DNA of 64,000 nt from Squalus acanthias (Eukaryota), in assembly GCA_030390025.1 (NCBI GenBank), contig CM059431.1:136154001-136218000 (forward strand), in the 5' to 3' direction. How positions within the stretch are numbered: the first letter of the stretch is position 1; each line of letters opens with the position of its first letter. Below the pieces are notes generated by a model that did not search any database, was not told the DNA's origin, and saw only the letters and a program-made list of their open reading frames with translations. Of the stretch, positions 1 through 64,000 are shown one piece after another. The position numbers and the translations under genes were made by a program.

Positions 1-3000
1 ATCACAGACCACTACAGGAGTAGAATCATCACAGACCACTACAGTAGTAGGATCATCACAGACCACTACAGGAGTAGAATCATCACAGACCACTACAGGA
101 GTACGATCATCACAGACCACTACAGGAGTAGGATCATCACAGACCACTACAGGAGTAGGATCATCACAGACCACTACAGGAGTAGAATCATCACAGACCA
201 CTACAGGAGTAGAATCATCACAGACCACTACAGGAGGAATGTCATCACAGACAACTACAGGAGTAGGATCATCACAGACCACTACAGGTGTAGAATCATC
301 ACAGACCACTACAGGAGTAGAAACATCACAGACCACTACAGGAGTAGAATCATCACAGACCACTACAGGCATAGGATCAACACAGACCACAACAGGAGTA
401 GAATCAGCACAGACCACTGCAGGAATAGGATCATCAAAGACAACTACAGGAGTAGAATCATCACAGACCACTACAGGTGTAGAATCATCACAGACCACTA
501 CAGGAGTAGAATGATCACAGACCACTACAGAAGTGGGATCACCACAGACCACTACAGGAGTAGAATCATCACAGACCACTACAGGTGTAGAATCATCACA
601 GACCACTACAGGAGTAGAATCATCACAGACCACTACAGGAGTAGAATCATCACAGACCACTGCAGGTGTAGGATCATCACAGACCACTACAGTAGTAGAA
701 TCATCACAGACCACTACAGGTGTAGAATCATCACAGACCACTACAGCAGTAGAATCATCACAGACCACTACAGGAATAGAATCATCACACACCACTACAG
801 GAGTAGAATCATCACAGACCACTACAGGAGTAGAATCATCACAGACCACTACAGGAATAGAATCATCACAGACCACTACAGGAGTAGAATCATCACAGAC
901 CACTACAGGAGTTGAATAATCACAGACCACTACAGGAGTAGAATCATCAGAGGCCACTACAGGAGTAGGATGATCACAGACCACTACAGGTGTAGAATCA
1001 TCACAGACCACGACCGGAGTAGAATCATCACAGTCCACTACAGGAGTAGAAACATCACAGACCACTACAGGAGTAGAATCATCACAGACCACTACAGGCA
1101 TAGGATCAAAACAGACCACAACAGGAGTTGAATCATCACAGACCACTGCAGGAATAGGATCATCAAAGACAACTACAGGAGTAGAATCATCACAGACCAC
1201 TACAGGAGTAGAATCATCACACACCACTACAGGAGTAGAATCATCACAGACCACAACAGGAGCAGAATAATCACAGACCACTACAGGAGTAGAATCATCA
1301 CAGACCACTACAGTAGCAGGATCATCACAGACCACTACAGGAGTAGAATCATCACAGACCACTACAGGAGTACGATCATCACAGACCACTACAGGAGTAG
1401 GATCATCACAGACCACTACAGGAGTAGGATCATAACAGACCACCACAGGAGTAGAATCATCACAGACCACTACAGGAGTAGAATCATCACAGTCCACTAC
1501 AGGAGTAAAGTCATCACAGACAACTACAGGAGTAGGATCATCACAGACCACTACAGGTGTAGAATCATCACAGACCACTACAGGAGTAGAATCATCACAG
1601 ACCACTACAGAAGTGGGATCACCACAGACCACTACAGGAGTAGAATCATCACAAACCTCTACAGGAGTAGAATCATCACAGACCAATACAGCAGTAGAAT
1701 CATCACAGCCCACTACAGAAGTAGAATCATCACACACCACTACAGGAGTAGAATAATCACAGACCACTACAGGAGTATAATCATCACAGGCCACTACAGG
1801 CATAGGATCAACACAGACCACAACAGGCGTAGAATCAGCACAGACCACTACAGGAATAGGATCATCAAAGACAACTACAGGAGTAGAATCATCACAGACC
1901 ACTACAGGAGTAGAATCATCACAGACCACTACTGGTGTAGAATCATCACAGACCACTACAGGAATAGAATCATCACAGACCACTACAGGAGTAGAATCAT
2001 CACAGACCACTACAGGAGTAGAATCATCACAGACCACTACAGGAGTAGGATCATCACAGAATACTACAGGAGTAGAATCATCACAGACCACTACAGGAGT
2101 AGAATCATCACAGACCACTACAGGAGTAGAATCATCAGAGACCACTACAGGAGTAGGATGATCACAGACCACTACAGGTGTAGAATCATCACAGACCACT
2201 ACCGGAGTAGAATCATCACAGTCCACTACAGGAGTAGAAACATCACAGACCACTACAGGAGTAGAATCATCACAGACCACTACAGGCATAGGATCAACAC
2301 AGACCACAACAGGAGTAGAATCATCACAGACCACTACAGGAGTAGAATCATCACAGACCACTACAGGAGTAGGATCATCACAGACCACTACAGGAGTAGA
2401 ATCATCACAGACCACTACAGGAATACGATCATCACAGACCACTACAGGAGTAGGATCATCACAGACCACTACAGGAGTAGAATCATCACAGACCACTACA
2501 GGAGTAGAATCATCACAGACCACTACAGGAGTAAAGTCATCACAGACAACTACAGGAGTAGGATCATCACAGACCACTACAGGTGTAGAATCATCACAGA
2601 CCACTACAGGAGTAGAATCATCACAGACCACTACAGGAGTAGAATCATCACAGACCACTACAGGTGTAGAATCATCACAGACCACTACAGTAGAAGAATC
2701 ATCACAGACCACTACAGGTGTAGAATCATCACAGACCACTACAGGAGTAGAATCATCACAAACCTCTACAGGAGTAGAATCATCACAGACCAATACAGCA
2801 GTAGAATCATCACAGCCCACTACAGAAGTAGAATCATCACACACCACTACAGGAGTAGAATAATCACAGACCACTACAGGAGTATAATCATCACAGGCCA
2901 CTACAGGCATAGGATCAACACAGACCACAACAGGAGTAGAATCAGCACAGACCACTACAGTAATAGGATCATCAAAGACAACTACAGGAGTAGAATCATC

Positions 3001-4328
3001 ACAGACCACTACAGGTGTAGAATCATCACAGACCACTACAGGAGTAGAATCATCACAGACCACTACTGGTGTAGAATCATCACAGACCACTACAGGAATA
3101 GAATCATCACAGACCACTACAGGAGTAGAATCATCACAGACCACTACAGGAGTAGAATCATCACAGACCACTACAGGAGTAGGATCATCACAGAATACTA
3201 CAGGAGTAGAATCATCACAGACCACTACAGGAGTAGAATCATCACAGACCACTACAGGAGTAGAATCATCACACACCACTACAGGAGTAGGATGATCACA
3301 GACCACTACAGGTGTAGAATCATCACAGACCACTACCGGAGTAGAATCATCACAGTCCACTACAGGAGTAGAAACATCACAGACCACTACAGGAGTAGAA
3401 TCATCACAGACCACTACAGGCATAGGATGAACACAGACCACAACAGGAGTAGAATCATCACAGACCACTACAGGAGTAGAATCATCACAGACCACTACAG
3501 GAGTAGGATCATCACAGACCACTACAGGAGTAGAATCATCACAGACCACTACAGGAGTAGAATCATCACAGACCACTACAGGAGTAGGATGATCACAGAC
3601 CACTACAGGTGTAGAATCATCACAGACCACTACCGGAGTAGAATCATCACAGACCACTACAGGAGTAGAATCATCACAGACCACTACAGGTGTAGAATCA
3701 TCACAGACCACTACAGTAGAAGAATCATCACAGACCACTACAGGTGTAGAATCATCACAGACCACTACAGGAGTAGAATCATCACAGACCACTACAGGAA
3801 TAGAATCATCACAGACCACTACAGGAGTAGAATCTTCACAGACCACTACAGGAGTAGAATCATCACAGACCGCTACAGGTGTAGAATCATCACAGACCAC
3901 TACCGGAGTAGAATCATCACAGTCCACTACAGGAGTAGAAACATCTCAGACCACTACAGGAGTAGAATCATCACAGACCACTACAGGCATAGGATCAACA
4001 CAGACCACAACAGGAGTAGAATCATCACAGACCACTACAGGAATAGGATCATCAACGACAACTACAGGAGTAGAATCATCACAGACCACTACAGGTGTAG
4101 AATAATCACAGACCACTACAGGAGTAGAATCATCACAGACCACTACAGGAGTAGGATCATCACAGACCACTACAGGAGTAGAATCATCACAGACGACTAC
4201 AGAAGTAGGTTTATCCCAGAGCACTATAGGAGTAGAATCAGCACAGACCACTACAGGAGTAGGATCATCACAGACCAATACAGGAGTAGAAGTATCACAG
4301 ACCACTACAGGAGTAGAACCATCACAGA
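1..4328 (+). repeat. 27-bp tandem satellite array, left variant domain (runs off window start)
   Basis: Continuous head-to-tail ATCACAGACCACTACAGGAGTAGAATC with recurrent variants (GGCATAGGATCAACACAG, AGAAGTGGGATCACC, GGAATAGGATCATCAAAGACAAC). Ends at ...GAACCATCACAGA, 4328. Confidence 0.98.
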
Positions 4329-4354
4329 TTAAAAAGTAATATAAGGGTTAAGTC

Positions 4355-5302
4355 ATGGCAGTAGAGCTCGGACCTGTGTCATGCTCCTCCTGTAACATGT
4401 GGGAAATCAGGGACGCTTCCTGTGTCCCTGACAACCATGTGTGCGGGAAGTGTGTCCAGCTGCAGCTCATGTGGGACCGCATGACGGCCCTTGAGCTGTG
4501 GATGGACTCACTTTGGAGCATCCACGATTCTGAGAGGGTTGTGGATAGCACATTTAGTGAGTTGGTCACACCGCAGGTTAAGGCCAGCGTAGATAGTACA
4601 TGGGTGACCAAAAGGCAGAGCAAGGGCAGGAAGGTAGTGCAGAAATCCCCTGGGGTTGTCTCCCTTAGCAACAGGTTCACCGCCTTAGGTGCTGTTGTCG
4701 GGGGGGATGACTCATCGGGGGAAGGCACCAGCAGCCAGGCTCATGGCACCATGACTGGCTCTGTTGCAAAGAAGGGAGGGAAAAAGAGTGGCAGGGCTTT
4801 AGTAATAGGGGATTCGATTGTAAGGGGAATAGATAGGGGTTTCTGTGTTCGCGACCGAGACTCCAGGATGGTATGTTGCCTCCCTGGTGCAAAGGTCAAG
4901 GATGTCTTGGCGCGGGTGCAGAACATTCTGGAGGGGGAGGGGGAACAGCCAGTTGTCGTGATACATGTTGGTACCAACGACGTAGCTAAAAAAAGGGAAG
5001 AGGTCCTACAAGTAAAATTTAGGGAGTTAGGAGCCAAGCTAAAAAGTAGGACCTCGAAGGTAATAATCTCTGGATTACTACCAGTGCCACGTGCTAGTAA
5101 GAGTACAGAGAACAGAATAGTTAGGCTAAATACGTGGCTTGAGCAGTGGTGTAAGAGGGAGGGTTTTACATTTTTGAGGCATTGGAACCAGTTTTGTGGT
5201 AGGTGTGACCTATACAAAAGGGACGGTCTACACCTGTGCAAAGATGGAACTGATGTTCTCGGGGTAATTTTTGATAAAGCAGTTCGGGAGCATTTAAATT
5301 AG
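4355..5302 (+). CDS. CR1 ORF1 protein: N-terminal CxxC..CxxC zinc finger, coiled-coil-like segment, SGNH/GDSL-type esterase domain
   Basis: 315-aa open frame with CSSC...CGKC, LSNRFTAL, VIGDSIVR (catalytic Ser block), HVGTND (Asn block) and DGLH (Asp/His block). This is the known CR1 ORF1 architecture. Confidence 0.92.
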   Translation: MAVELGPVSCSSCNMWEIRDASCVPDNHVCGKCVQLQLMWDRMTALELWMDSLWSIHDSERVVDSTFSELVTPQVKASVDSTWVTKRQSKGRKVVQKSPGVVSLSNRFTALGAVVGGDDSSGEGTSSQAHGTMTGSVAKKGGKKSGRALVIGDSIVRGIDRGFCVRDRDSRMVCCLPGAKVKDVLARVQNILEGEGEQPVVVIHVGTNDVAKKREEVLQVKFRELGAKLKSRTSKVIISGLLPVPRASKSTENRIVRLNTWLEQWCKREGFTFLRHWNQFCGRCDLYKRDGLHLCKDGTDVLGVIFDKAVREHLN

Positions 5303-6336
5303 TATGGCAGGGGGCTAGAAACCTATGTAGTGAAATAGAGGAAAGTGAAAGGCAGACAGAAATAAATGGTAAAAGGGTGAGGAACAAAAAACAAAGGGCC
5401 AAACTAATTCATAAAAAATGTGAGCATAAAAAAAGCCTGAGGGTTTAATACCTTAATGCGAGAAGCATCAGGAACAAGGTAGATGAATTAGCTGTGGAAA
5501 TAGAGGTTAATAATTATGATCTAATTGGGATTACGGAAACATGGTTGCAGGGTGAGCAGGGCTGGGAGCTTAACATACAGGGGTATTCAGTATTTAGGAA
5601 GGATCGACAAAAAAGAAAGGGAGGAGGGGTAGCATTGCTGGTAAAAGAGGGGATAAATGCAATTGAAAGGAAGGATATTAACTCAGTTAAAACATAATCT
5701 ATATGGGTGGAGCTAAGAAATAGCGAGGGGCGAAAAACATTAATAGGAGTGGTATATAGGCCTCCAAATAGTAAAATAGAGGTTGGGGAGGGCATCACGA
5801 GGGAAATTAGAGAAGCGTGCAATAAGAGCACAGCTGTCATCATAGGTGACTTTCACTTACATATAGATTGGACTAGCCTAATCAGTAAAACTAATGAGGA
5901 GGAGGAATTCCTTGAGTGTTTAAGGGATGGTTATCTGGATCAATATGTCGAGGAATCAACTCGGGAACAGGCTATATTGGACTGGGTATTGTGCAATGAG
6001 AAGGGACTAATTAGTAATCTTGTTGTACGGGGACCCTTGGGTCAGAGCGATCATAACATGGTCGATTTCTCACTCGAAATGGAGAGCGAAGAAATTGACT
6101 CAGAGACTAAGGTCCTGAATTTAAACAAGGGGAATTATGATGCCATTAGACGGGAACTGAGTAGGTCTGATTGGACAACGTTCCTGGGAGGACTGGAGGT
6201 AGATAAACAATGGCAAGCATTTAAAGATAAAATGACAAAATTGCAAAAATTGTTTATACCAATCTGGCATAAAAGGAAATCTAAAAAGGTGACTCAACCG
6301 TGGATAACAGGGGAAATTAGAGACAGCATAAAATCC
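5293..6336 (+). pseudogene. CR1-1 ORF2, N-terminal part: APE-type endonuclease and start of linker
   Basis: One frame reads LRV*YLNARSIRNK, IGITETW, RKDR..GGGVALLV, GVVYRPP, IIGDF, ILDWVL, SDH. In-frame TAA at 5446-5448 and 5695-5697. Breaks into satellite after IRDSIKS. Confidence 0.93.
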
Positions 6337-8420
6337 AACTCCTGTTGTGGTCTGTGATGATTCTATTCCTGTAGTGGTCTGTGATGATTCTACACCTGTA
6401 GTGGTCTGTGATGATCCTACTCCTGTAGTTGTCTGTGATGACTTTACTCCTGTAGTGGTCTGTGATGATTCTACTCCTGTAGTGGTCTGTGATGATTCTA
6501 CTCCTGTAGTGGTCTGTGATGATTCTACTCCTGTAGTATTCTGTGATGATCCTACTCCTGTAGTGGTCTTTGATGATTCTACTCCTGTAGTGGTCTGTGA
6601 TGATTGTACTCCTGTAGTGGTCTGTGATGATTCTATTCCTGTAGTGGTCTGTGATGCTTCTACTCCTGTAGAGGTCTGTGATGACTCTACTCCGGTAGTG
6701 GTCTGTGATGATCCTACTCCTGTTGTGGTCTCTGATGATTCTACTCCTGTAGTGGTCTGTGATGATTCTACTCCTGTAGTGGTCTGTGATGATCCTACTC
6801 CTGTAGTGGTCTGTGATGATTCTACTCCTGTAGTGGTCTGTGATGATTCTACTCCTGTAGTGGTCTGTGATGATTCTATTCCTGTAGTGGTCTGTGATGA
6901 TTCTACTCCTGTAGTTGTCTGTGATGATTCTACTCCTGTAGTGGTCTGTGATGATCCTACTCCTGTTGTGGTCTGTGATGATTCTACTCCTGTAGTCGTC
7001 TGTGATGATTCTACTCCTGTAGTGGTCTGTGATGATCCTACTCCTGTAGTGGTCTGTGATGATTCTACTCCTGTAGTGGTCTGTGATGATTCTACTCCTG
7101 TAGTGGTCTGTGATGATTCTATTCCTGTAGTGGTCACTGATGATTCTACTCCTGTAGTTGTCTGTGATGATTCTACTCCTGTAGTGGTCTGTGATGATTC
7201 TACTCCTGTAGTGGTCTGTGATGATTCTATTCCTGTAGTGGTCTGTGATGATTCCACTACTGTACTGATCTGTGATGATTCTACTCCTGCAGTAGTCTGT
7301 GATGATTCTACTCTTGTAGTGGTCTGTGATGATTCTACTCGTGTAGTGATCTGTGATGATTCTATTACTGTACTGATCTGTGATGATTCTACTCCTGTAG
7401 TAGTCTGTGATGATTCTACTCCTGTAGTGGTCTGTGATGATTATACTCCTGGAGTGGTCTGTGATGATTCTACTCCTGTCGTGGTCTCTGATGATTCTAC
7501 TCCTGTAGTGGTCTGTGATGATTCTACTCCTGTAGTGGTCTGTGATGATTCGACTCCTGTAGTGGTCTGTGATGATTCTACATCTGTTGTGGTCTGTGAT
7601 GTTTCTACTCCTGTAGTGGTCTGTAATGATTCTACTCCTGTAGTGGTCTGTGATGATTCTACTCCTGTAGTGGTCTGTGATGATTCTACTCCTGTAGTGG
7701 TCTGTGATGGTTCTACTCCTTTAGTCGACTGTGATGATTCTACTCCTGTAGTGGTCTGTGATGATCCTCCTCCTGTAGTGGTCTATGATGATTCTACTCC
7801 TGTAGTGGTCTGTGATGATTCTACTCCTGTAGTGGTCTGTGATGATCCTACTCCTGTAGTGGTCTGTGATGATTCTACTCCTGTAGTGGTCTGTGATGAT
7901 TCTACTCCTGTAGTGGTCTGTGATGATTCTACTCCTGTAGTGGTCTGTGATGATTCTACTCCTGCAGTGGTCTGTGATGATCCTACTCCTGTCGTGGTCT
8001 CTGATGATCCTACGCCTGTAGTTGTCTGTGATGATTCTACTCCTGTAGTGGTCTGTGATGATTCTACTCCTGTAGTGGTCTGTGATGATTCTACTCCTGT
8101 AGTGGTCTGTGATGATTCTGCTCCTGTAGTGGTCTGTGATGATTCTACTCCTGTAGTGGTCTGTGATGATTCTACTCCTGTAGTGGTCTGTGATGATTCT
8201 ACTCCTGTAGTGGTCTGTAATGATTCTACTCCTGTCGTGGTTTGTGATGATCCTACTCCTGTCGTGGTCTGTGATTATTCTACTCCTGTAGTGGTCTGTG
8301 ATGATTCTACTCCTGTAGTGGTCTGTGATGATTCTACTCCTGTAGTGGTCTGTGATGATTCTACTCCTGTAGTGGTCTGTGAGGATTCTACTCCTGTAGT
8401 GGTCTGTGATGATTCTACTC
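6333..8420 (-). repeat. Inverted block of the 27-bp satellite (~77 monomers) embedded in CR1-1 ORF2
   Basis: Tandem GATTCTACTCCTGTAGTGGTCTGTGAT, the reverse complement of the monomer. It is the only minus-orientation satellite in the window. Confidence 0.97.
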
Positions 8421-10107
8421 GGGGGAATATATAACGGGAAATAAGGAAATGGCAGACCAACTAAATGCATACTTTGGGTCAGTCTTTACGAAGGAAGACA
8501 CAAAAAACCTCCCTGGGATATCGGGAAAAATAGGGACATTTGCAAAGGAGGAACTGACGCAAGTCAATATCTCTAAGGATATGGTGTTAAGGAAGCTAAA
8601 GGGATTGAAGGCGGACAAATCCCCAGGGCCTGATAATATGCATCCTAGGGTACTGAAGGAGGTGGCCCTAGAGATAGCGGATGCACTAAGTATGATTTTT
8701 CAGAATTCATTAGACTCGGGAACAGTGCCCATGGATTGGAGGGTAGCTAACGTTACCCCACTATTCAAAAAGGGGGGTAGGGAAAAAGCAGGTAATTACA
8801 GACCTGTAAGCCTTACATCAGTTGTGGGCAAAATGCTGGAGTCCATCATTAAGGATGAAATAGCGGAGCACTTAGCAAATGGGGACAGGATAGGACAGAG
8901 TCAACATGGATTTACAAAGGGTAAATCGTGCTTGACTAATCTATTGGAATTTTTTGAGGGAGTAACTGGTAAAATAGATGGGGGAGAGCCAGTAGATGTG
9001 GTGTACCTGGACTTCCAAAAGGCCTTCGACAAGGTCCCACATAAAAGATTAGCATGGAAAATTGAAGCTCATGGGATAAAGGGGAAAGTATTGACGTGGA
9101 TAGAGAGCTGGCTGTCAGATAGAAAACAGAGAGTTGAAATAAACGGCTCATTTTCTGAATGGCAGGCAGTAACAAGTGGGGTACCACAGGGATCTGTCCT
9201 GGGTCCCCAGCTGTTCACAATTTACATTAATGACCTGGATCAGGGAGTCGGATGCAGCATTTCCAAATTTGCAGACGACACTAAACTAGGAGGGGGGGTG
9301 GGCTCAGAGGAGGAGACCAGGAAGCCCCAGAGCGATTTGGACAGACTGGGTGATTGGGCGGATAAATGGCAGATGCACTATAATGTGGACAAGTGCGAAG
9401 TTATCCACCTTGGGTGCAGGAACGGGAGGGCAAATTATTATTTAAATGGCAATAAATTGGGAGAGGGGGAAGTACAGAGAGACCTGGGTGTTCTTGTACA
9501 CCAGTCACTGAAGGCGAGCATGCAGGTGCAACAGGCGGTCAAGAAGGCAAACGGTATGCTGGCCTTCATAGCAAAAGGGTTGGAATACAGGAACAGGGAT
9601 ACCTTGCTGCAGCTGTACAGGGCACTGGTGAGACCACACCTCGAGTACTGTGTACAGTTTTGGTCGCCTCATCTGAGGAAAGATGTTCTTGCCATGGAGG
9701 GGGTGCAGCGCCGATTCACCAGGCTGATACCAGGAATGGCGGGATTGACCTATGAGGAGAGACTATGTAGTTTAGGGATGTACACACTGGAGTTTAGAAG
9801 ATTGAGAGGGGACCTCATAGAAGTGTATAAAATTCTGACAGGTCTAGACAGACTAGATGCAGAAGGAATGTTTCCCTTGGCGGGTGAGAACAGAACTGGA
9901 GGACATAATTTAAGGATAAGGGCTAAACCATTTAGGACAGAAATGAGGGGGAATTTCTTCACTCAGAGGGTGGTGAACCTGTGGAACTCATTGCCACAGA
10001 GGGCAGTGTAGGCCAGCTCATTAAATATATTTAAGAGGGAATTAGATATATTTCTACAGGCAAAAGGGGTTAAGGGTTACGGAGAGAAGGCGGGGACGGG
10101 ATACTGA
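8419..10107 (+). pseudogene. CR1-1 ORF2, C-terminal part: reverse transcriptase domain
   Basis: SGEYITGNKEMADQLN, KSPGPD, NYRPVSLTS, QHGF, YLDFQKAFDKVPH, GVPQGSVLGP, KFADDTKL. Premature TAG at 10009-10011; the homologous frame continues ASSLNIFK...GEKAGTGY to TGA at 10105-10107. Confidence 0.95.
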
Positions 10108-10140
10108 ATTGGAGGATCAGCCATGATCTCATTAAATGGC

Positions 10141-10208
10141 GGAGCAGGCTCGAAGGGCCGGATGGCCTACTCCTGCTCCTATCTTCTGTGTATCTATGTA
10201 TCTATGTA
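10141..10208 (+). other. CR1-1 3' UTR stem-loop and (TCTRTGTA)3 terminal repeat
   Basis: GGAGCAGG (10141-10148) pairs with CCTGCTCC (10172-10179). Inner GGCC-GGAT-GGCC at 10156-10167. Tail TCTGTGTA TCTATGTA TCTATGTA at 10185-10208. Confidence 0.85.
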
Positions 10209-13200
10209 CCACTACAGGAATAGGATCATCCCAGACCACTACAGGAGTAGAAACAGCACAGACCACTACAGGAGTAGGATCATCATAGACCACTACAGGA
10301 GTAGAAACATCACAGACCACTAGAGGAGTAGAATCATCACAGACCAATACAGGAGTAGAATCATCACAGACCACTACAGGAGTAGGATCATCACAGACCA
10401 CTACAGGAGAATCATCACAGACCACTACAGGCGTAGAATGATCACAGACCACTACAGGAGTAGAATCATCACAGACCACTACAGGAGTAGGATCATCACA
10501 GACCACTACAGGAGTAGAATCATGACAGACCACTACAGGAGTAGAATCATTATAGATCACTACAGGAGTGGAATCATCACAGACCACTACAGGAGTAGGA
10601 TCATCACAGACCACTACAGGAGTAAAGTCATCACAGACAACTACAGGAGTAGGAGCATCACAGACCACTACAGGAGTAGAATCATCACAGACCACTACAG
10701 GTGTAGAATCATCACAGACCACTACAGGAGTAGAATCATCACAGATCACTACAGGAGTAGAATCATCACAGACCACTACAGGAGTAGGATCATCACAGAC
10801 CACTACAGTAGTAGAATCATCACAGACCACTACAGGTGTAGAATCATCACAGACCACTACAGCAGTAGAATCATCACAGACCACTGCAGGAATAGAATCA
10901 TCACAGACCACGACAGGAGTAGAATCATCACAGACAACTACAGGAGTAGAATCATCACAGACCACTACAGGAGTAGGATCATCACAGACCACTACAGGAG
11001 TAGAATTATCAGAGACCACTACAGGAGTAGGATCATCACAGACCACTACAGGAGTAGAATCATCACAGACCACTACCGGAGTAGAATCATCACAGACCAG
11101 TACAGGAGTAGAAACATCACAGACCACTACAGTAGTAGAATCATCACAGACCACTACAGGCATAGGATCAACACAGACCACTACAGGAGTAGAATCATCA
11201 CAGACCACTACAGGAATAGGATTATCAAAGACAACTACAGGAGTAGAATCATCACAGACCACTGCAGGTGTAGAATCATCACAGACCACTACAGGAGTAG
11301 AATCATCACAGACCACTACAGAAGTGGGATCACCACAGACCACGACAGCAGTAGAATCATCACAAACCACTACAGGAGTAGAATCATCACATACCAATAC
11401 AGCAGGAGAATCATCACAGCCCACTACAGGAGTAGAATCATCACACACCACTACAGGAGTAGAATCATCACAGACCACAACAGTAGTAGAATAATCAGAG
11501 ACCACTTCAGGAGTAGAATCATCACAGATCACTACAGGTGTAGAATCATCACAGACCACGACAGTAGTAGAATCATCACAGACCACTACAGGAATAGAAT
11601 CATCACAGACCACTACAGGATTAGAATCATCACAGACCACTACAGGAGTAGAATCATCACAGACCACTACAGGAGTAGGATCATCACAGAATACTACAGG
11701 AGTAGAATCATCACAGACCTCCACAGGAGTAGAATCAGCACAGACCGCTACAGGAGTAGAATCATCAGAGACCACTACAGCAGTAGGATCATCACAGACC
11801 ACTACAGGAGTAGAATCATCACAGACCACTCGCGGAGATGAATCATCACAGACCACTACAGGAGTAGAAACATCACAGACCACTACAGTAGTAGAATCAT
11901 CACAGACCACTACAGGCATAGGATCAACACAGACCACTACAGGAGTAGAATCATCACAGAACACTACAGGAATAGGATCATCAAAGACAACTACAGGAGT
12001 AGAATCATCACAGACCACTACAGGTGTAGAATCATCACAGACCACTACAGGAGTAGAGTCATCACAGACCAATACAGCAGTAGAATCATCATAGCCCACT
12101 ACAGGAGTAGAATCATCACAGACCACAACAGGAGTAGAATAATCACAGACCACTACAGGAGTAGAATCATCACAGACCACTACAGGAGTAGAATCATCAC
12201 AGACCACTACAGGAGTAGAATCATCAGAGACCACGACAGAAGTGGGATCACCACAGACCAATACAGGAGCAGAATCATCACAAACCACTACAGGAGTAGA
12301 ATCATCACAGACCAATACAGCAGTAGAATCATCATAGCCCACTACAGGAGTAGAATCATCACACACCACTACAGGAGTAGAATCATCACAGACCACAACA
12401 GGAGTAGAATAATCACAGACCACTACAGGAGTAGAATCATCACAGACCACTACAGGAGTAGAATCATCAGAGACCACTACAGAAGTGGGATCACCACAGA
12501 CCACTACAGGGGTAGAATAATCACAGACCACTACAGGAGTAGAATCATCAGAGACCACTACAGAAGTGGGATCACCACAGACCACTACAGGAGTAGAATC
12601 ATCACAGACCACGACAGGAGTAGAATCATCAGAGACCACTACAGAAGTGGGATCACCACAGACCACTACAGGAGTAGAATCATCACAGACCACTACAGGA
12701 GTAGAATCATCAGAGACCACTACAGAAGTGGGATCACCACAGACCACTACAGGAGTAGAATCATCACAGACCACAACAGGAGCAGAATAATCACAGACCA
12801 CTACAGGAGTAGAATCATCACAGACCACTACAGGAGTAGAATCATCACAGACCACTACGGGACTAGAATCATCACAGACAACTACGGGAGTGGGATTATC
12901 CCAGAGCACTACAGGAGTAGAATCAGCACAGACCACTACAGGAGTAGGATCATCACAGACCACTACAGGAGCAGAATTATCACAGACCACTGCAGGAGTA
13001 GAACCATCACAGACCACTACAGGAATAGGATCATCCCAGACCACTACAGGAGTAGAATCAGCACAGACGACTACAGGAGTAGGATCATCACAGACCACTA
13101 CAGGAGTAGAATCATCACAGACCACTACAGGAGTAGAATCATCACAGCCCACTACAGGAGTAGAATCATCACAGACCACTACAGGAGTAGGATCATCACA

Positions 13201-49458: not shown

Positions 49459-51682
49459 AACATAGAAACATGGAAACATAGAAACATAGAAAATACGTGC
49501 AGGAGTAGACCATTCGGTCCTTCGAGCCTGCACCGCCATTCAATGCGTTCATGGCTGAACATGCTACTCAGTACCCCATTCCTGCTTTCTCACCATACCC
49601 CTTGATCCCCCTAGTTGTGAGTATTATATCTAACTCACTTTTGAATATATTTAGCGAACTGGCCTCAACAATCTTCTGTGGTAGAGAATTCCACAGATTC
49701 ACCACTCTCTGGGTGAAGAAGTTCCTCCTCATCTCAGTCTTAAATGGCTTCGACTTTATCCTTAGACTGTGACCCCTGGTTTTAGTTTTCCCTAACATTG
49801 GAAATATTCTGCCCGCATCTAATTTGTCTGAACCAGTCAGGATTTTAAACGTCTCTATAATATCCCCCCTCATTCTTCTGAACTCCAGAGGATACAAGTT
49901 CAGTTGATCCAGTCTTTCTTGATATGTCAGTCTGGCCATCCAAGGAATCAATCTAGTGAACCTTCGTTGCACTCCCTCAATAGCAAGAATGTCCTTCCTC
50001 AAGTTAGGAGACCAAAACTGCATACAATACTCCAGGTGTGGCCTCACCAAGGCCCTGTACAATTGTAGCATCACCTCCCTACTCCTGTACTCATATCCCC
50101 TTGCTATGAAGGCCATCATGCCATTTGCTTTCTTGACTGCCTGCTGCACTTGCCTTCCCACCTTCAGTGACTGATGTACCATGACGCCCAGGTCTCGTTG
50201 CACCTCCCCTTTCCCTAATCTGCCACCATTCAGGTAATAGTCTGCCTCCCTATTTTTACCACCAAAGTGGATAACCTCACATTTATCCACATTGTACTTC
50301 ATCTGCCATACATTTGCCCATTCACCCAAACTGTCCAAGTCACTCTGTAGCCTCCTAGCATCCTCCTCATTGTTCACACTTCTTCCCAATTTAGTGTCAT
50401 CCGCAAATTTGGAGATATTACAATTAATCCCTTCGTCCAAATCATTAATATATAATGTAAACAGCTGGGGCCCCAGCACCGAACCCTGCGGTAACCCGCT
50501 GGTCACTGCCTGCCATTCTGAAAAGTACCCATTTACTCCTACTCTTTGTTTCCTGTGTGCCAACCAGTTCTCAATCCACGTCAACACATTACCCCCAATC
50601 CCATGTGCTTTAACTTTGCACACCAATCTCTTGTGTGGGACCTTGTCGAAGGCCTTCTGAAAGTCCAAATACACCACATCTACTGGTTCCCCCCTGTCCA
50701 CCCTATTGGAAACATCATCAAAAAATTCCAGAAGATTTGTCAAGCACGATTTCCCTTTCACAAATCCATGCTGACTTGGACCTATCATGTCGCCACTTTC
50801 CAAATGGTCTGTTATGACATCTTTAATAATTGATTCCATCATTTTACACACCACCGATGTCAGGCTGACCGGTCTATAATTCCCTGCTTTCTCCCTCCCT
50901 CCTTTTTTAAAAAGAGGGGTTACATTAGCCACCCTCCACTCCTTTGGAACTGATCCAGAGTCTAAGGAATGTTGGAAAATGATCGTCAATGCATCCACTA
51001 TTTCCAAGGCCACCTCCTTAAGTACTCTGGGATGCAGACCATCAGGCCCTGGGGATTTATCAGCCTTCAGTCACGTCAATTTCCCCAACACGTTTTCCCG
51101 ACTGATCCTTTGATTTATTTTATTTCCGGAAGGTTGTTTGTGTCCTCCACAGTAAACACCGAACCAAAGTACTTGTTCAATTCATCTGACATTTCTTTCT
51201 TCCCCATTATGACTTCCCCTGTTTCTGACTGCAGGGGACCTACGTTTGTTTTTACTAACCTCTTTCTTTTTACATATTTATAGAAGCTTTTGCAGTCCGT
51301 TTTAATGTTCTCCACAAGCTTCCTTTCATATTTTATTTTCCCTGCCCGAATCAAACCCTTCGTCCTCCTCTGCTGAGTTTTAAAGTTCTCCCAGTCCCCG
51401 GGTTTGCTGCCACTTCTGGCCAATTTGTATGCCACTACTTTGCTTTTAATACTATCCCTGATTTCCCTTGTTAGCCATGGTTGAGCCACCTTCCCTTATT
51501 TATTTTTACGCCACACAGGGATGTACAATTGCTGTAGTTCATCATGCGATCTCTAAATGTCTGCCATTGCCCTTCCACTGATAACCCCTTAAATATCGCT
51601 TGCCAATCTAACCTCGCCAATTCACGCATCATACCCTCAAAGTTGCCCTTATTTAAGTTCTGGACCATGGTCTCTGAATTAA
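49459..51682 (-). mobile_element. CR1-clade LINE (CR1-2), 5'-truncated, inserted in satellite
   Basis: Tail of (CATAGAAA)n on + at 49459-49492, 3' UTR hairpin at 49497-49533, RT region. 5' end at NSETMVQNLNKGN. Candidate TSD GAGTA at 49454-49458 and 51683-51687. Confidence 0.95.
49568..51682 (-). pseudogene. CR1-2 ORF2 remnant (linker + reverse transcriptase)
   Basis: 481-aa open RT portion (NYRPVSLTS, YLDFQKAFDKVPH, GLPQGSVLGP, KFADDTKL). Upstream are stops and a short deletion/frameshift near 51070-51120, plus a frameshift near 51540. Confidence 0.93.
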
Positions 51683-59910: not shown

Positions 59911-59928
59911 TGTGAAGGAGATGGGAGG

Positions 59929-59944
59929 GCATCAGGTGGCGCTA
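59929..59944 (+). promoter_or_regulatory. Candidate CTCF-binding motif at the satellite edge
   Basis: GCATCAGGTGGCGCTA versus the CTCF core CCACCAGGTGGCGCT: 13/15 by eye. Motif match only. Confidence 0.35.
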
Positions 59945-60135
59945 TTTGCTCGCCCAGCGGAGACAGAAATCGATGAAGCCAGTTGGTGTTCAGAGGATTT
60001 CCCAGGTGCTATAGTTGAAAAAAGAGGATTAAGGGACACCATTCCCTTCCGCAACCCTCTGTCGTCTCCGACTTTGGAGCCACTAACATGCATGTTTCAT
60101 GTGTCAACGTTAGGTATGGAGAAGGAGCAGTTAGA

Positions 60136-62595
60136 GTCATAGTGTCATGGAGTCATAGAGTTATACAGCATGGATAGAGGCCCTTCGGCCCATCATGTCC
60201 GCGCCGGCCATCAAGCCCTGTCTAATCTAATCCCAGATTCCAGCATTTGGTGCGTAGCCTTGTATGCTATGGCATTTCAAGTGCTCATCCAAATGCTTCT
60301 TGAATGTTGTGAGGTTTCCTGCCTCCACAACCCTTTCAGGCAGTGAGTTCCAGACTCCAACCACCCTCTGGGTGAAAAAGTTCTTTCTCAAATCCCTTCT
60401 AAACCTCCCGCCCTTTACCTTGAATCTATGCCCCCTTGTTATAGACCCCGCTACTAAGGGAAAAAGCTCCTTAGTATCCATCCTATCTATGCCCCTCATA
60501 ATTTTGTACACCTCAATCATGTCCCCCCTCAGCCTCCTCTGCTCCAAGGAAAACGTACCCAATCTGCCCAGTCTCTCTTCATATCTGAAGCACTCCAGCC
60601 CGGGTAACATTCTGGTGAATCTCCTCTGCACCCTCTCCAAAGCGATCACATCCTTCCTGTAGTGTGGCGACCAGAACTGCACACGGTATTCCAGATGTGG
60701 CCTAACCAGTGTTTTATACAGCTTCTTCATAACCTCCTTGCTCTTATATTCTATGCCTCGGCTAATGAATGCTAGTATCCCATATGCCTTTTTTACCACC
60801 TTATCCACCTGTTCTGCCGCCTTCAGGGATCTGTGTACTTGCACACCAAGATCCCTCTGACCCTCCATCTTGCCTAGGGTCTTACCATTCATTGTGTATT
60901 CCCTTGCCTTGTTAGTCCCTCCAAAGTGCATCACCTCTCACTTTTCCGGATTAAATTCCTTTTGCCACTGTTCCGCCCATCTGACCAACCCATCTATATC
61001 GTCCTGCAGACTGAGGCTACCCTCCTCGCTATTTACCACCCTACCAATTTTTGTATCATCCGCGAACTTACTGATCATACCTTTTACATTCATATCCAAG
61101 TCGTTAATGTAGACCACAAACAGCAAGGGACCCAGCACTGATCCCTGTGGTACCCCACTGGCCACAGGCTTCCAGTCACAAAAACAAACTTCGACCATCA
61201 CCCTCTGCCTTCTGCCACTGAGCCAGTTTTGTATCCAATGTGCCAAAGCACCCTGGATTCCATGGGCTCTTACCTTCTTGACCAGTCTCCTGTGCGGGAT
61301 TTTATCGGAGGCCTTACTGAAATCCATGTATACCACATCCACTGCGTTACCCTCATCCACACACCTAGTCACCCCCTCAAAAAATTCAATCACATTAGTC
61401 AGACATGATCTTCCCTTGACAAAGCCATGTTGGCTAACCATGATTAATCCTTGCCTCTCCAAGTGGAGACTAATTTTGTCCCTCAGAATTTTTTCCAATA
61501 ATTTTCCTACCACTGATGTTAGGCTCACTGGCCTGTAGTTCCCCGGTTTTTCCCTGCTCCCTTTCTTGAGTAATGGTACTACATTAGCGGTTCTCCAGTC
61601 CACTGGCACATCCCCTGTGGCCAGAGAGGTTCTGAATATATGTGTTAGAGCCCCCGCAATCTCCTCCTTTGCCTCACACAGCAGCCTGGGATACATTTCG
61701 TCCGGACCTGGGGATTTATCCATTTTTAGACCTGCTAAAACCGCCAATACCTCCTCCCTCTCGATGTTAAAATGTTCGAGTATATCACAGTCCCCCTGCC
61801 CTAATTTTATGTCTGCATCGTCCTTCTCCATAGTGAAAACAGATGCAAAAAAATCATTTAGAACCCCACCTACATCTTCCGGCATCCTCACACAGATTGC
61901 CACTTTTGTCCCCAATGGGCCCTATTTTTTTCCTAGTTATCCTCTTACCCTTAATATACTTATAAAACATCTTAGGATTTTCCTTTATTTTGCTCGCCAG
62001 TGTTATTTCATGGCCCCTCCTTGATCTCCTAATTTCTTTTTTAAGTATCCCCCTGCACTTTTTGTACTCCTCTTGGGCTTCCTCCGTCTTTAGCATTTTG
62101 TATCTGCCAAAGCCCTCCTTTTTTTTCCTGATCCATTCTCGTATATCCCCTGACATCCAAGGTTCCCTGGGGTTTTTGGATCAACCCTTGACCTTTACGG
62201 GAATATGCTGCCATTGTATGATCTCAATCTCCCTTCTGAAAGAATCCCATTGCTCCGATGTGGATTTTCCTGCAAGCAGCTGATCCCAGTCAATTTTGGC
62301 CAGATCCTGCCTTATCCTATTAAAATCGGCCTTCCCCCAATTTAGAACCTTTATTTCCGGCCCATCCCTGTCCTTTTCCATGACCACCTTAAATCTCACC
62401 GTATTATGGTCACTGTCACCAAAGTGCTCACCTACTGACACTTCTTCCACTTGGCCGGCCACATTCCCTAGATTTATGTCCAGTACCGCCCCCTCTCTTG
62501 TAGGACTTTCTACATGCTGGCTCAAAAAGCTCTCCTGGATGCACTTTAAGAATTCCGCGCCCTCTAAGCCTTTCACACTCTGACTATCCCAGTTA
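60136..62595 (-). mobile_element. CR1-clade LINE (CR1-3, a more divergent subfamily), 5'-truncated within the endonuclease domain
   Basis: Degenerate (CATAGAGT)n tail on + at ~60132-60161, inner GGCC-CTTC-GGCC hairpin at 60179-60190, RT and partial APE ORFs. Flanked by the 8-bp direct repeat CAGTTAGA (60128-60135 and 62590-62597). Confidence 0.94.
60227..62595 (-). pseudogene. CR1-3 ORF2 remnant (C-terminal APE, linker, reverse transcriptase)
   Basis: Broken ORFs 62576-62181 (SPTREGAVLD, DSDHN), 62156-61854, 61915-60938 (KSPGPD, QHGF, GVPQGSVLGP, KFADDTK) and 60934-60227, separated by stops or frameshifts. Confidence 0.93.
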
Positions 62596-63324: not shown

Positions 63325-64000
63325 AAAAATGAGAGGGACGGACTGAAACCAATCAGTATTTGTAGGGAAATGGTGTTAGCGAAATTGATGGGATTGAAGG
63401 CCGATAAATCCCCAGGGCCTGATAATCTACATCCTAGAGTACTTAAGGAAGTGGCCCTGGAAATAGTAGATGCATTGCCGATCATCTTCCAAAATTCTAT
63501 AGACTCTGGAACAGTTCCCATGGATTGGAGGGTAGCTAATGTAACCCCACTATTCAAAAGGTGGTAGAGAGAAAACGGGGAATTATAGACCGAGAAGCCT
63601 GACATCGGTAGTGGGGAAAATACTGGAGTTCATTATAAAAGATGTAATAGCAGAGCACTTGGAAAACAGTAACAGGATCGGACAAAGTCAACATGGATTT
63701 ACAAAAGGTAAATCATGCTTGACTAATCTACTGGAATTTTTTGAAGATGTAACTGGTAAAATAGATAAGGGAGAACCAGTGGATGTGGTGTATTTGGACT
63801 TTCAGAAGGCTTTCGATAAGGTCCCGCATCAGAGATTAGCGTGTAAAGTTAAGGCACATGGGATTGGGGGCAAGGTATTGACTTGGATAGAGAACTGGTT
63901 GGCAGACAGAAGGCAAAGAGTTGGAATAAACGGGTCTTTTTCCGAGTGGCAGGCAGTGACTAGTGGGAAAACCGCAGGGATCAGTCCTAGGACACCAGCT
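63325..64000 (+). mobile_element. CR1-clade LINE fragment (CR1-4), 5'-truncated ORF2 RT region, runs off window end
   Basis: NERDGLKPISICREMVLAKLMGLKADKSPGPDNLHPRVLKEVALEI..., frameshift near 63560, then QSQHGF, YLDFQKAFDKVPH. Highly similar to CR1-1 and CR1-2. 5' boundary is approximate. Confidence 0.92.

Follow-up and report, generated by a model that had tools for sequence, protein, structure and literature searches.

The CR1 retrotransposons whose first open reading frame (ORF1) carries an SGNH esterase domain most probably make their ORF2 product by -1 programmed ribosomal frameshifting (PRF), which would yield a fusion of the esterase to the endonuclease (EN) as well as the reverse transcriptase (RT). 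The junction between the two frames is a real and deeply conserved feature, which at the sequence level comprises a slippery heptamer, its codon phase, a -1 overlap of the two frames, the usual lack of an ATG in ORF2, the exchange of one heptamer type for another and a G-run or hairpin at a fixed distance. The strongest argument for frameshifting is that an in-phase X_XXY_YYZ heptamer is retained while the heptamer type, the preceding codon, the stop codon and the linker all change. The earlier note on this DNA had proposed such a gag-pol-like fusion; conservation across families and a second heptamer type found at the same place and in the same phase now lend support to this reading.

The copy in question lies in the window (the whole stretch of 64,000 nucleotides from Squalus acanthias that was analyzed), in which an array of a 27-bp satellite, counting 160 and about 1840 units by TRF, fills positions 1-4328 and 10208-59907, respectively, and encloses a few CR1 fragments. 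Its features are as follows:

4329-10212, + strand: CR1 copy, with ORF1 followed by ORF2 coding for an APE endonuclease and RT
4355..5302, + strand: ORF1, 315 aa, ending in ...EHLN*, with N-terminal Cys-x2-Cys pairs and a C-terminal SGNH esterase
5278..5292, + strand: open -1 frame ahead of the heptamer, five codons, without ATG
5293..5299, + strand: slippery heptamer T_TTA_AAT, family form T_TTA_AAC (from the window sequence and variants in four runs)
5300..5302, + strand: ORF1 stop right behind the heptamer, TAG in the window copy
5310..5314, + strand: G-run, candidate stimulatory motif, +11..+15 after the heptamer
5293..5448, + strand: -1-frame linker up to the endonuclease, 52 codons, ATG-free, basic, poorly conserved
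5449..6330, + strand: APE endonuclease region of ORF2, with the second in-frame stop of the copy at 5695-5697
6338..8420, - strand: inverted 27-bp satellite block, 77 units (TRF), which breaks ORF2
8413..10011, + strand: RT and C-terminal part of ORF2 (RVT_1, E 2e-30)
10012..10212, + strand: 3' UTR with short TATGTATC-like repeats at its end, adjoining the satellite

The copy is an ordinary member of the esterase-ORF1 CR1 LINEs. Its ORF1, which starts with the ATG at 4355, matches the SGNH esterase family PF13472 of Pfam (E 8.9e-11), while the ORF1 profile A1 matches the ORF1 esterase of PDB entry 4c1b (E 2.9e-41); among the matches listed, the closest named homologs are from sharks and rays. 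In ORF2, Pfam recovers PF14529 (9.1e-09) and RVT_1 (2e-30), with PF03372 just under the cut-off (3.4e-05). The same combination of a zinc-finger plus SGNH ORF1, an APE-RT ORF2 and a short-repeat 3' end is described in the accessible portions of the literature for elements with type IV ORF1s (CR1 subgroup 7, PMC4120745; survey in PMC13343379), and, in a comparison by eye, the junction closely resembles that of the ScyCan CR1-1a consensus in the accessible part of the latter survey. As the earlier note had held, the copy is decayed, and indeed dead: stop codons break ORF2 at 5446 and 5695, and the inverted satellite block interrupts it at 6338-8420. This block takes the place of some tens of ORF2 codons, by a rough estimate, and suggests recombination or repair inside the array. 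The copy is truncated about 25 nt upstream of the ORF1 ATG (window 4329-4354), and its satellite junctions show no evident target-site duplication. Three further CR1 fragments in the window, at 49487-51657 (-), 59912-62594 (-) and 63334-64000 (+), share 75%, 65% and 81% DNA identity, respectively, with the RT part; all are 5'-truncated and none has an ORF1. Long pseudo-ORFs also arise from the frames of the 27-bp satellite; mucin-like and extending to as much as 2395 aa, they are repeat artifacts, and we reject them as genes.

Positions 5293-5299 read TTTAAAT, in the phase T TTA AAT with ORF1, and the TAG follows at once at 5300-5302. The -1 frame starts at 5278 behind TGA TAA, reads SSSGAFKLVWQGARN..., and has its first ATG at 6058, beyond YLNARS, the N-terminal motif of the endonuclease, at 5449; on both the heptamer and the ATG-free frame, the window sequence agrees with what had been claimed. 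We aligned reads and contigs of four runs (X1, X8, X17 and the RNA run X23) to 5130-5510. A T>C change at 5299 accounts for 59860.6/59875 of the depth in X1, 50/50 in X8, 42.6/42.6 in X17 and 77/77 of the RNA reads in X23. Hence, essentially all other copies have C at this position, the family heptamer is U_UUA_AAC, and the AAU is private to the window copy. Likewise, 5447 A>T is found at the whole depth in all four runs; this confirms the suspicion, raised by the motif LRV*YLNARS, that the TAA at 5446-5448 derives from a TTA by decay. Among the best 40 of 74 variant rows for 5130-5510 in the four runs, none falls at 5293-5298 or 5303-5305. The ORF1 stop is TAA in about two-thirds of the X1 depth (40208.9/59889.6), and X8 and X17 each contribute one contig across 5130-5510, with three differences. 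In the RNA run, whose reads lie in both orientations, are from an organism related by label only and are silent on strand or level, the 869 aligned reads (77 across 5299) contain neither an indel at 5293-5299 nor a splice joint at 3% or more within 5130-5510.

An endonuclease-anchored scan, blind to the junction, recovered 29 loci, in which animal-like DNA sits in microbial bins. Seventeen of these possess TTTAAACTAG (14 still -1 relative to EN, 3 offset), one has TTTAAAG, and two have T_TTT_TTA followed by GTG and a stop; the other nine are 5'-truncated (2), too short (4) or endowed with a non-esterase ORF1 (3). An in-phase heptamer lies within two codons of the ORF1 stop in 7/7 family representatives, with U_UUA_AAC/U in five families and U_UUU_UUA in two. 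The ORF1s of these families show about 30-45% identity between four groups in long alignments and about 60% inside the group formed by L020, L031 and L041. At the equivalent positions, Leu is encoded by TTA and preceded by T in all seven families, with TTA constituting 17-43% of the Leu codons in their elements; in-phase XXXYYYN (Y = A or T) is found at 12/2753 other codon positions. The product of the synonymous-codon probabilities for the junction is 1e-6, a value that overstates independence as the seven families amount to about four independent groups. The same constraint is seen in copies of one family from G001, where TTTAAAC is kept in 19/20 and the codon ahead of TTA varies (TTT, TAT, TGT) but ends in T in 20/20. 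The earlier note had suggested conservation of the heptamer, with Leu always as TTA and T ahead of it, as a check of its proposal, and this pattern is present in every esterase-ORF1 family with readable junction DNA.

In 7/7 representatives, with the private stop of the window copy set aside, no stop interrupts the -1 frame between the heptamer and EN, over linkers of 33-94 codons. In the case of L001, whose ORF1 is 35% identical to that of the window copy and has a tail like that of the cluster holding sterlet proteins, the junction reads CAT TTA AAC TAG and is followed by a 33-codon -1 linker containing neither Met nor the near-cognate codons CTG, GTG, TTG and ACG. Distant families, in which ORF1 ends in FLV or QGN instead of LN, still form a heptamer where DNA is available. 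The end-of-ORF1 motif is absent from the non-esterase CR1-like loci L036, L040, L046 and L095-L098 and therefore does not characterize CR1-group elements as a whole. One of these, L040, has a zinc-finger-like ORF1 (positions 41-521) in the same frame as the endonuclease, open for 173 codons; it is possibly a single-ORF element or a mutated copy. ORF1-anchored scans of metagenomes gave 14 loci, with L001 as the only CR1 junction, and those of genome contigs gave weak hits only (22-32% identity), apparently to bacterial SGNH genes; no CR1 ORF1 was found in five scans of viral contigs or in plasmids.

Published consensus sequences extend this picture across vertebrates. In the accessible part of Supplementary Table 2 of PMC13343379, a search over the first 400 letters of each consensus cell finds TTTAAACTA in 23 cells, of which 17 are ORF1 ends and 6 are not. 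These 17 vertebrate junctions read TTTAAACTAR, and their name codes denote crocodilians, bowfin, frog, chimaera, rays, sharks and coelacanth. One lizard consensus has TGA behind the heptamer; the ORF1 stop accordingly varies (TAG, TAA, TGA) while the heptamer is constant. A search of the same material anchored on the DGLH codons returns seven cells, with the motif in 5/5 visible junctions, one junction cut short and one cell unrelated. These are de novo consensus sequences with gaps and errors, and their junctions were read by eye. As side observations from the accessible part of this table, the SquAca CR1-18 and CR1-3 consensus sequences have TTTAAACTA also in the 5' UTR, and the AldAff “Crack-2” consensus has a CR1-type ORF1 end.

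The lack of an ATG in ORF2, as claimed earlier for the window copy, turns out to be the majority state, but not a rule. Met is absent before EN in 6/7 family representatives, with two in the linker of L033, and an in-frame ATG or UAAUG near the ORF1 stop is found in 0/8 loci. On the other side, TAATG, with the ATG in the ORF2 frame and overlapping the stop as it does in SART1, is present in 3/17 of the accessible consensus junctions (ScyCan CR1-1a, SquAca CR1-17a and SquAca CR1-6c), all three of which also carry the heptamer, and in an AldAff consensus from the same source an ATG lies ten codons in. Among bird gene models, several begin with a Met 8-33 codons ahead of EN, though such models need an ATG and are thereby biased toward Met starts.

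At the protein level, LN is the C-terminal end of 91/120 listed ORF1 homologs, the named ones being from sharks, rays, coelacanth, bony fish, frogs, turtles and squamates, and the addition of 131 proteins brings the count to 134 LN and 11 GN ends among 251 esterase ORF1 homologs. Neither L315 nor N316 varies in alignments A1 and A2; the solved esterase domain covers profile positions 146-309, with the LN at 312-313 outside the aligned part. A U_UUA_AAC heptamer requires a U-ending codon ahead of Leu, and E, Q, K, M and W have no such codon. These residues precede LN in 2/134 proteins (1/34 at 60% identity) versus 19.6% at positions -4 to -12; however, helix positions -6 and -7 are likewise poor in them (11/134 and 8/134), which weakens this test and makes it moderate alone. 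The residue ahead of GN is Q in nine cases, S in one and A in another, each of which can be coded with a final G, as G_GGA_AAC needs, and F/Y/H/N/D/C/I precede GN in 0/10 representatives versus 15/34 for LN (Fisher p 2e-6 for the preceding-residue contrast in 60%-identity representatives). In eight more proteins, KN lies exactly 26 residues past the DG motif, with a variable tail behind it. From these protein sequences, we predict G_GGA_AAC for the GN-ending group, which is probably one clade, and A_AAA_AAC for the KN-containing proteins; DNA of neither type was found in the scans of genome contigs and viral contigs. As many as 48/187 complete ORF1 tails have neither an LN nor a GN end, many being without any slippery-compatible dipeptide, and hence the heptamer signal is not universal among esterase ORF1s. 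Four proteins (P0037, P0085, P0127 and P0265) continue past the esterase in the -1 frame (...FKL...); being gene models or decayed copies, they resemble the predicted fusion by mimicry.

The usual spacing between a slippery site and its stimulator is 5-9 nt. No stimulatory stem-loop is found at this distance from the CR1 heptamer, and no stable fold lies downstream of it, either in the window copy (z +0.45 to +1.54) or in the five U_UUA_AAC/U families (z -1.3 to +1.7), in folds computed without pseudoknots. The earlier impression that there is no downstream structure thus stands for RNA folds in these families, but they have a G-run instead, and the U_UUU_UUA families do have a hairpin. Specifically, GGGGG is found at +11 to +15 in 5/5 U_UUA_AAC/U families (the window copy, L001, L020, L031 and L041) and is kept in 17/20 G001 copies; it is GGGG in one related shark subfamily (position 5314), and its offset is less exact in the accessible de novo consensus sequences. 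The residue ahead of the Gly encoded by the G-run varies (Q, K; P, E and L in consensus sequences), whereas the Gly is always GGG (codon product 3e-5 for five families, which are not independent). The G-run is thus an unstructured motif about 10-11 nt downstream, as in protein-stimulated PRF. In the two U_UUU_UUA families, L027 and L033, a common 8-bp hairpin follows an 11-nt spacer; both sides are changed in 2/8 pairs between these two sequences, and its z-scores of -2.3 and -2.6 (p 0.015 each, over +6..+45) fade in longer windows. Two other candidate signals were rejected: long-range pairing of the G-run, whose best partners are at unrelated offsets, and an upstream “attenuator” hairpin at 5230-5300, which has a z of -0.99 and is broken by the 5291 C>G variant.

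The main rival to frameshifting is termination-reinitiation, whereby ribosomes would stop at the end of ORF1 and restart in the -1 frame, via UAAUG or independently of AUG, to make a separate ORF2p, with the heptamer serving as a pausing or context signal. Both SART1 and L1 are, like CR1, bicistronic LINEs. SART1 offers a precedent for reinitiation in the accessible parts of PMC3894237 and PMC10275272, and L1 tolerates the loss of its ORF2 ATG, retrotransposing when this is replaced by other sense codons (PMC1965478, accessible part), and so a missing ATG alone proves nothing. The UAAUG of the three shark consensus families, the linker Met codons in L033 and birds and the placement of the ORF1 stop never more than two codons from the heptamer also fit such a mechanism. 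A TGGGA about 80 nt upstream in 3/8 loci could likewise be taken as TURBS-like; however, it falls on Trp codons and is missing in 5/8 loci, and we do not find this role supported. Unlike in SART1 coupling, most CR1 junctions have a heptamer and no ATG, with none of the eight loci having one in frame near the stop, and reinitiation leaves unexplained both the in-phase X_XXY_YYZ rule and the swaps between heptamer types. We consider reinitiation improbable; the two routes could, nevertheless, coexist.

Two further explanations would dispense with a decoding event at the heptamer. The motif could work at the RNA or DNA level, for example, through slippage of a polymerase, by splicing that gives an ORF2 message or as a factor-binding site, for which the accessible consensus sequences offer its occurrence in the 5' UTR of two Squalus elements. 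Yet, the strict codon phase would be unexpected for a DNA or splice signal, and the RNA reads, 77 of which cross 5299, display neither the indel nor the splice joint at 3% or more that it might produce; we regard this possibility as very improbable. The other, already disfavored and the least probable of all, is that Leu-Asn-stop is kept as a C-terminal signal of the ORF1 protein, with the DNA motif being a by-product of A/T-rich codons and ORF2 starting from scattered ATGs or non-AUG codons. The invariance of L315 and N316, the share of TTA among Leu codons (17-43%) and the linker Met codons of birds and L033 are compatible with this. Against it stand the TTA and the preceding T in 7/7 families and 20/20 G001 copies, the heptamers formed by the distant families ending in FLV or QGN and the -1 frame that is open all the way to EN over its 33-94 codons.

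Returning to frameshifting, we infer from the sequences that ribosomes shift at this junction, that they make the fusion protein, and that the shift is stimulated by the adjacent stop and the +11 element. We propose that the majority of ribosomes would end ORF1 at the stop directly behind the heptamer, while a minority would slip by -1 on U_UUA_AAC, re-pairing from UUA to UUU in the P site and from AAC to AAA in the A site. The slipped ribosomes would pass beyond the stop and translate the basic linker and then the APE endonuclease and RT, so that an ORF1-ORF2 fusion would be produced in a low, constant proportion, as is the case for gag-pol. If the two final codons of ORF1 slip in tandem in this way, the peptide across the junction would read ...EHLN-LVWQG..., and not FKLVWQG as the junction had previously been read. 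Stimulation might come from the adjacent stop together with the +11 element (G-run or hairpin), possibly bound by a protein. A more far-reaching version, which we offer as speculation and consider rather unlikely, is that in esterase-ORF1 CR1 LINEs, which dominate in many vertebrate genomes, RT is delivered only as the esterase-EN-RT fusion by a -1 shift hundreds of millions of years old, which would use interchangeable heptamers (U_UUA_AAC, U_UUU_UUA and the predicted G_GGA_AAC and A_AAA_AAC) and be stimulated, without a pseudoknot, by the stop and a protein-occupied G-run or hairpin. The binder might then be a host G-run protein or ORF1p, and the system would, by analogy, be a cellular-genome counterpart of the protein-stimulated frameshifting of arteriviruses.

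Several parallels are offered by known systems. Coronaviruses use U_UUA_AAC for 1a/1b, and HIV-1 uses U_UUU_UUA plus a hairpin. In retroviral gag-pol and coronavirus 1a/1b, as at the CR1 junction, the upstream ORF ends with an in-phase X_XXY_YYZ, the overlap is -1 and a polymerase lies downstream; in contrast to them, CR1 is a non-LTR element with no protease, no pseudoknot was found, and the downstream element is 10-11 nt away. A layout of this last kind is reported in the accessible part of PMC7939443 for the -1/-2 PRF at arterivirus nsp2, which involves no RNA structure; about 11 nt past the slippery site lies a short, conserved motif of low complexity, which is C-rich and bound by PCBP and nsp1beta. 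The CR1 +11 motif is G-rich, and the likeness in layout is an analogy only, not evidence. Among LINEs, the ORF2 of the Dictyostelium elements TRE5-A and TRE3-A is said to require a -1 frameshift (PMC5911963, accessible part); these are APE-type non-LTR elements like CR1 but belong to another clade and host, and the likeness is by description. LINE frameshifting thus has a precedent, and CR1 would not be a first. In the accessible part of PMC8557442, Penelope-like elements, which are of the GIY-YIG type and not APE LINEs, have an ORF1 separable by a frameshift with a pseudoknot. Some Penelope-like elements carry the esterase.

We found no paper on CR1 frameshifting in the literature, though the 1997 turtle and chicken CR1 papers or Repbase notes may mention an overlap or frameshift. 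The word “frameshift” does not occur in the accessible main text of PMC4120745, PMC13343379 and PMC3905857; the signal is visible in the supplementary consensus sequences of PMC13343379, with no remark on it in the searchable text of that work. There is no mention of CR1 in PMC5009743, and the accessible parts of PMC11835228, PMC2734521, PMC10275272 and PMC4316615 (one supplement) add nothing on CR1 frameshifting. The heptamer-type exchange, the +11 element and the UAAUG exceptions are what this analysis adds.

The mode of ORF2 translation in LINEs is an open question on which the CR1 junction bears; in its accessible part, a review of the subject names reinitiation, IRES and 2A as routes, and frameshifting is not among them (PMC3894237). 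If our proposal holds, CR1 ORF2 would be widely misannotated, with gene models beginning at arbitrary downstream Met codons, RT would be delivered tethered to a lipid-binding esterase, and assays with reconstructed CR1 elements would have to retain the native junction. The CR1 junctions also constitute a short, naturally varied and structure-free set of U_UUA_AAC sites for testing how slippage is stimulated.

Finally, the scans bring to light a number of mislabeled sequences. Animal-like CR1 DNA is found under bacterial or archaeal labels at L020-L044, L099-L142 (G001), L030, L031, L018, L019, L038, L039 and L041, with G001 (17.8 Mb) holding at least 20 copies of one CR1 family. The accessible part of PMC4120745 calls the esterase-ORF1 type exclusively vertebrate; the esterase-ORF1 CR1s L020, L030/L031, L027 and L033 are far from the vertebrate set. 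An NCBI entry named “Pseudomonas aeruginosa SGNH hydrolase” (P0009) is likewise a CR1 ORF1.
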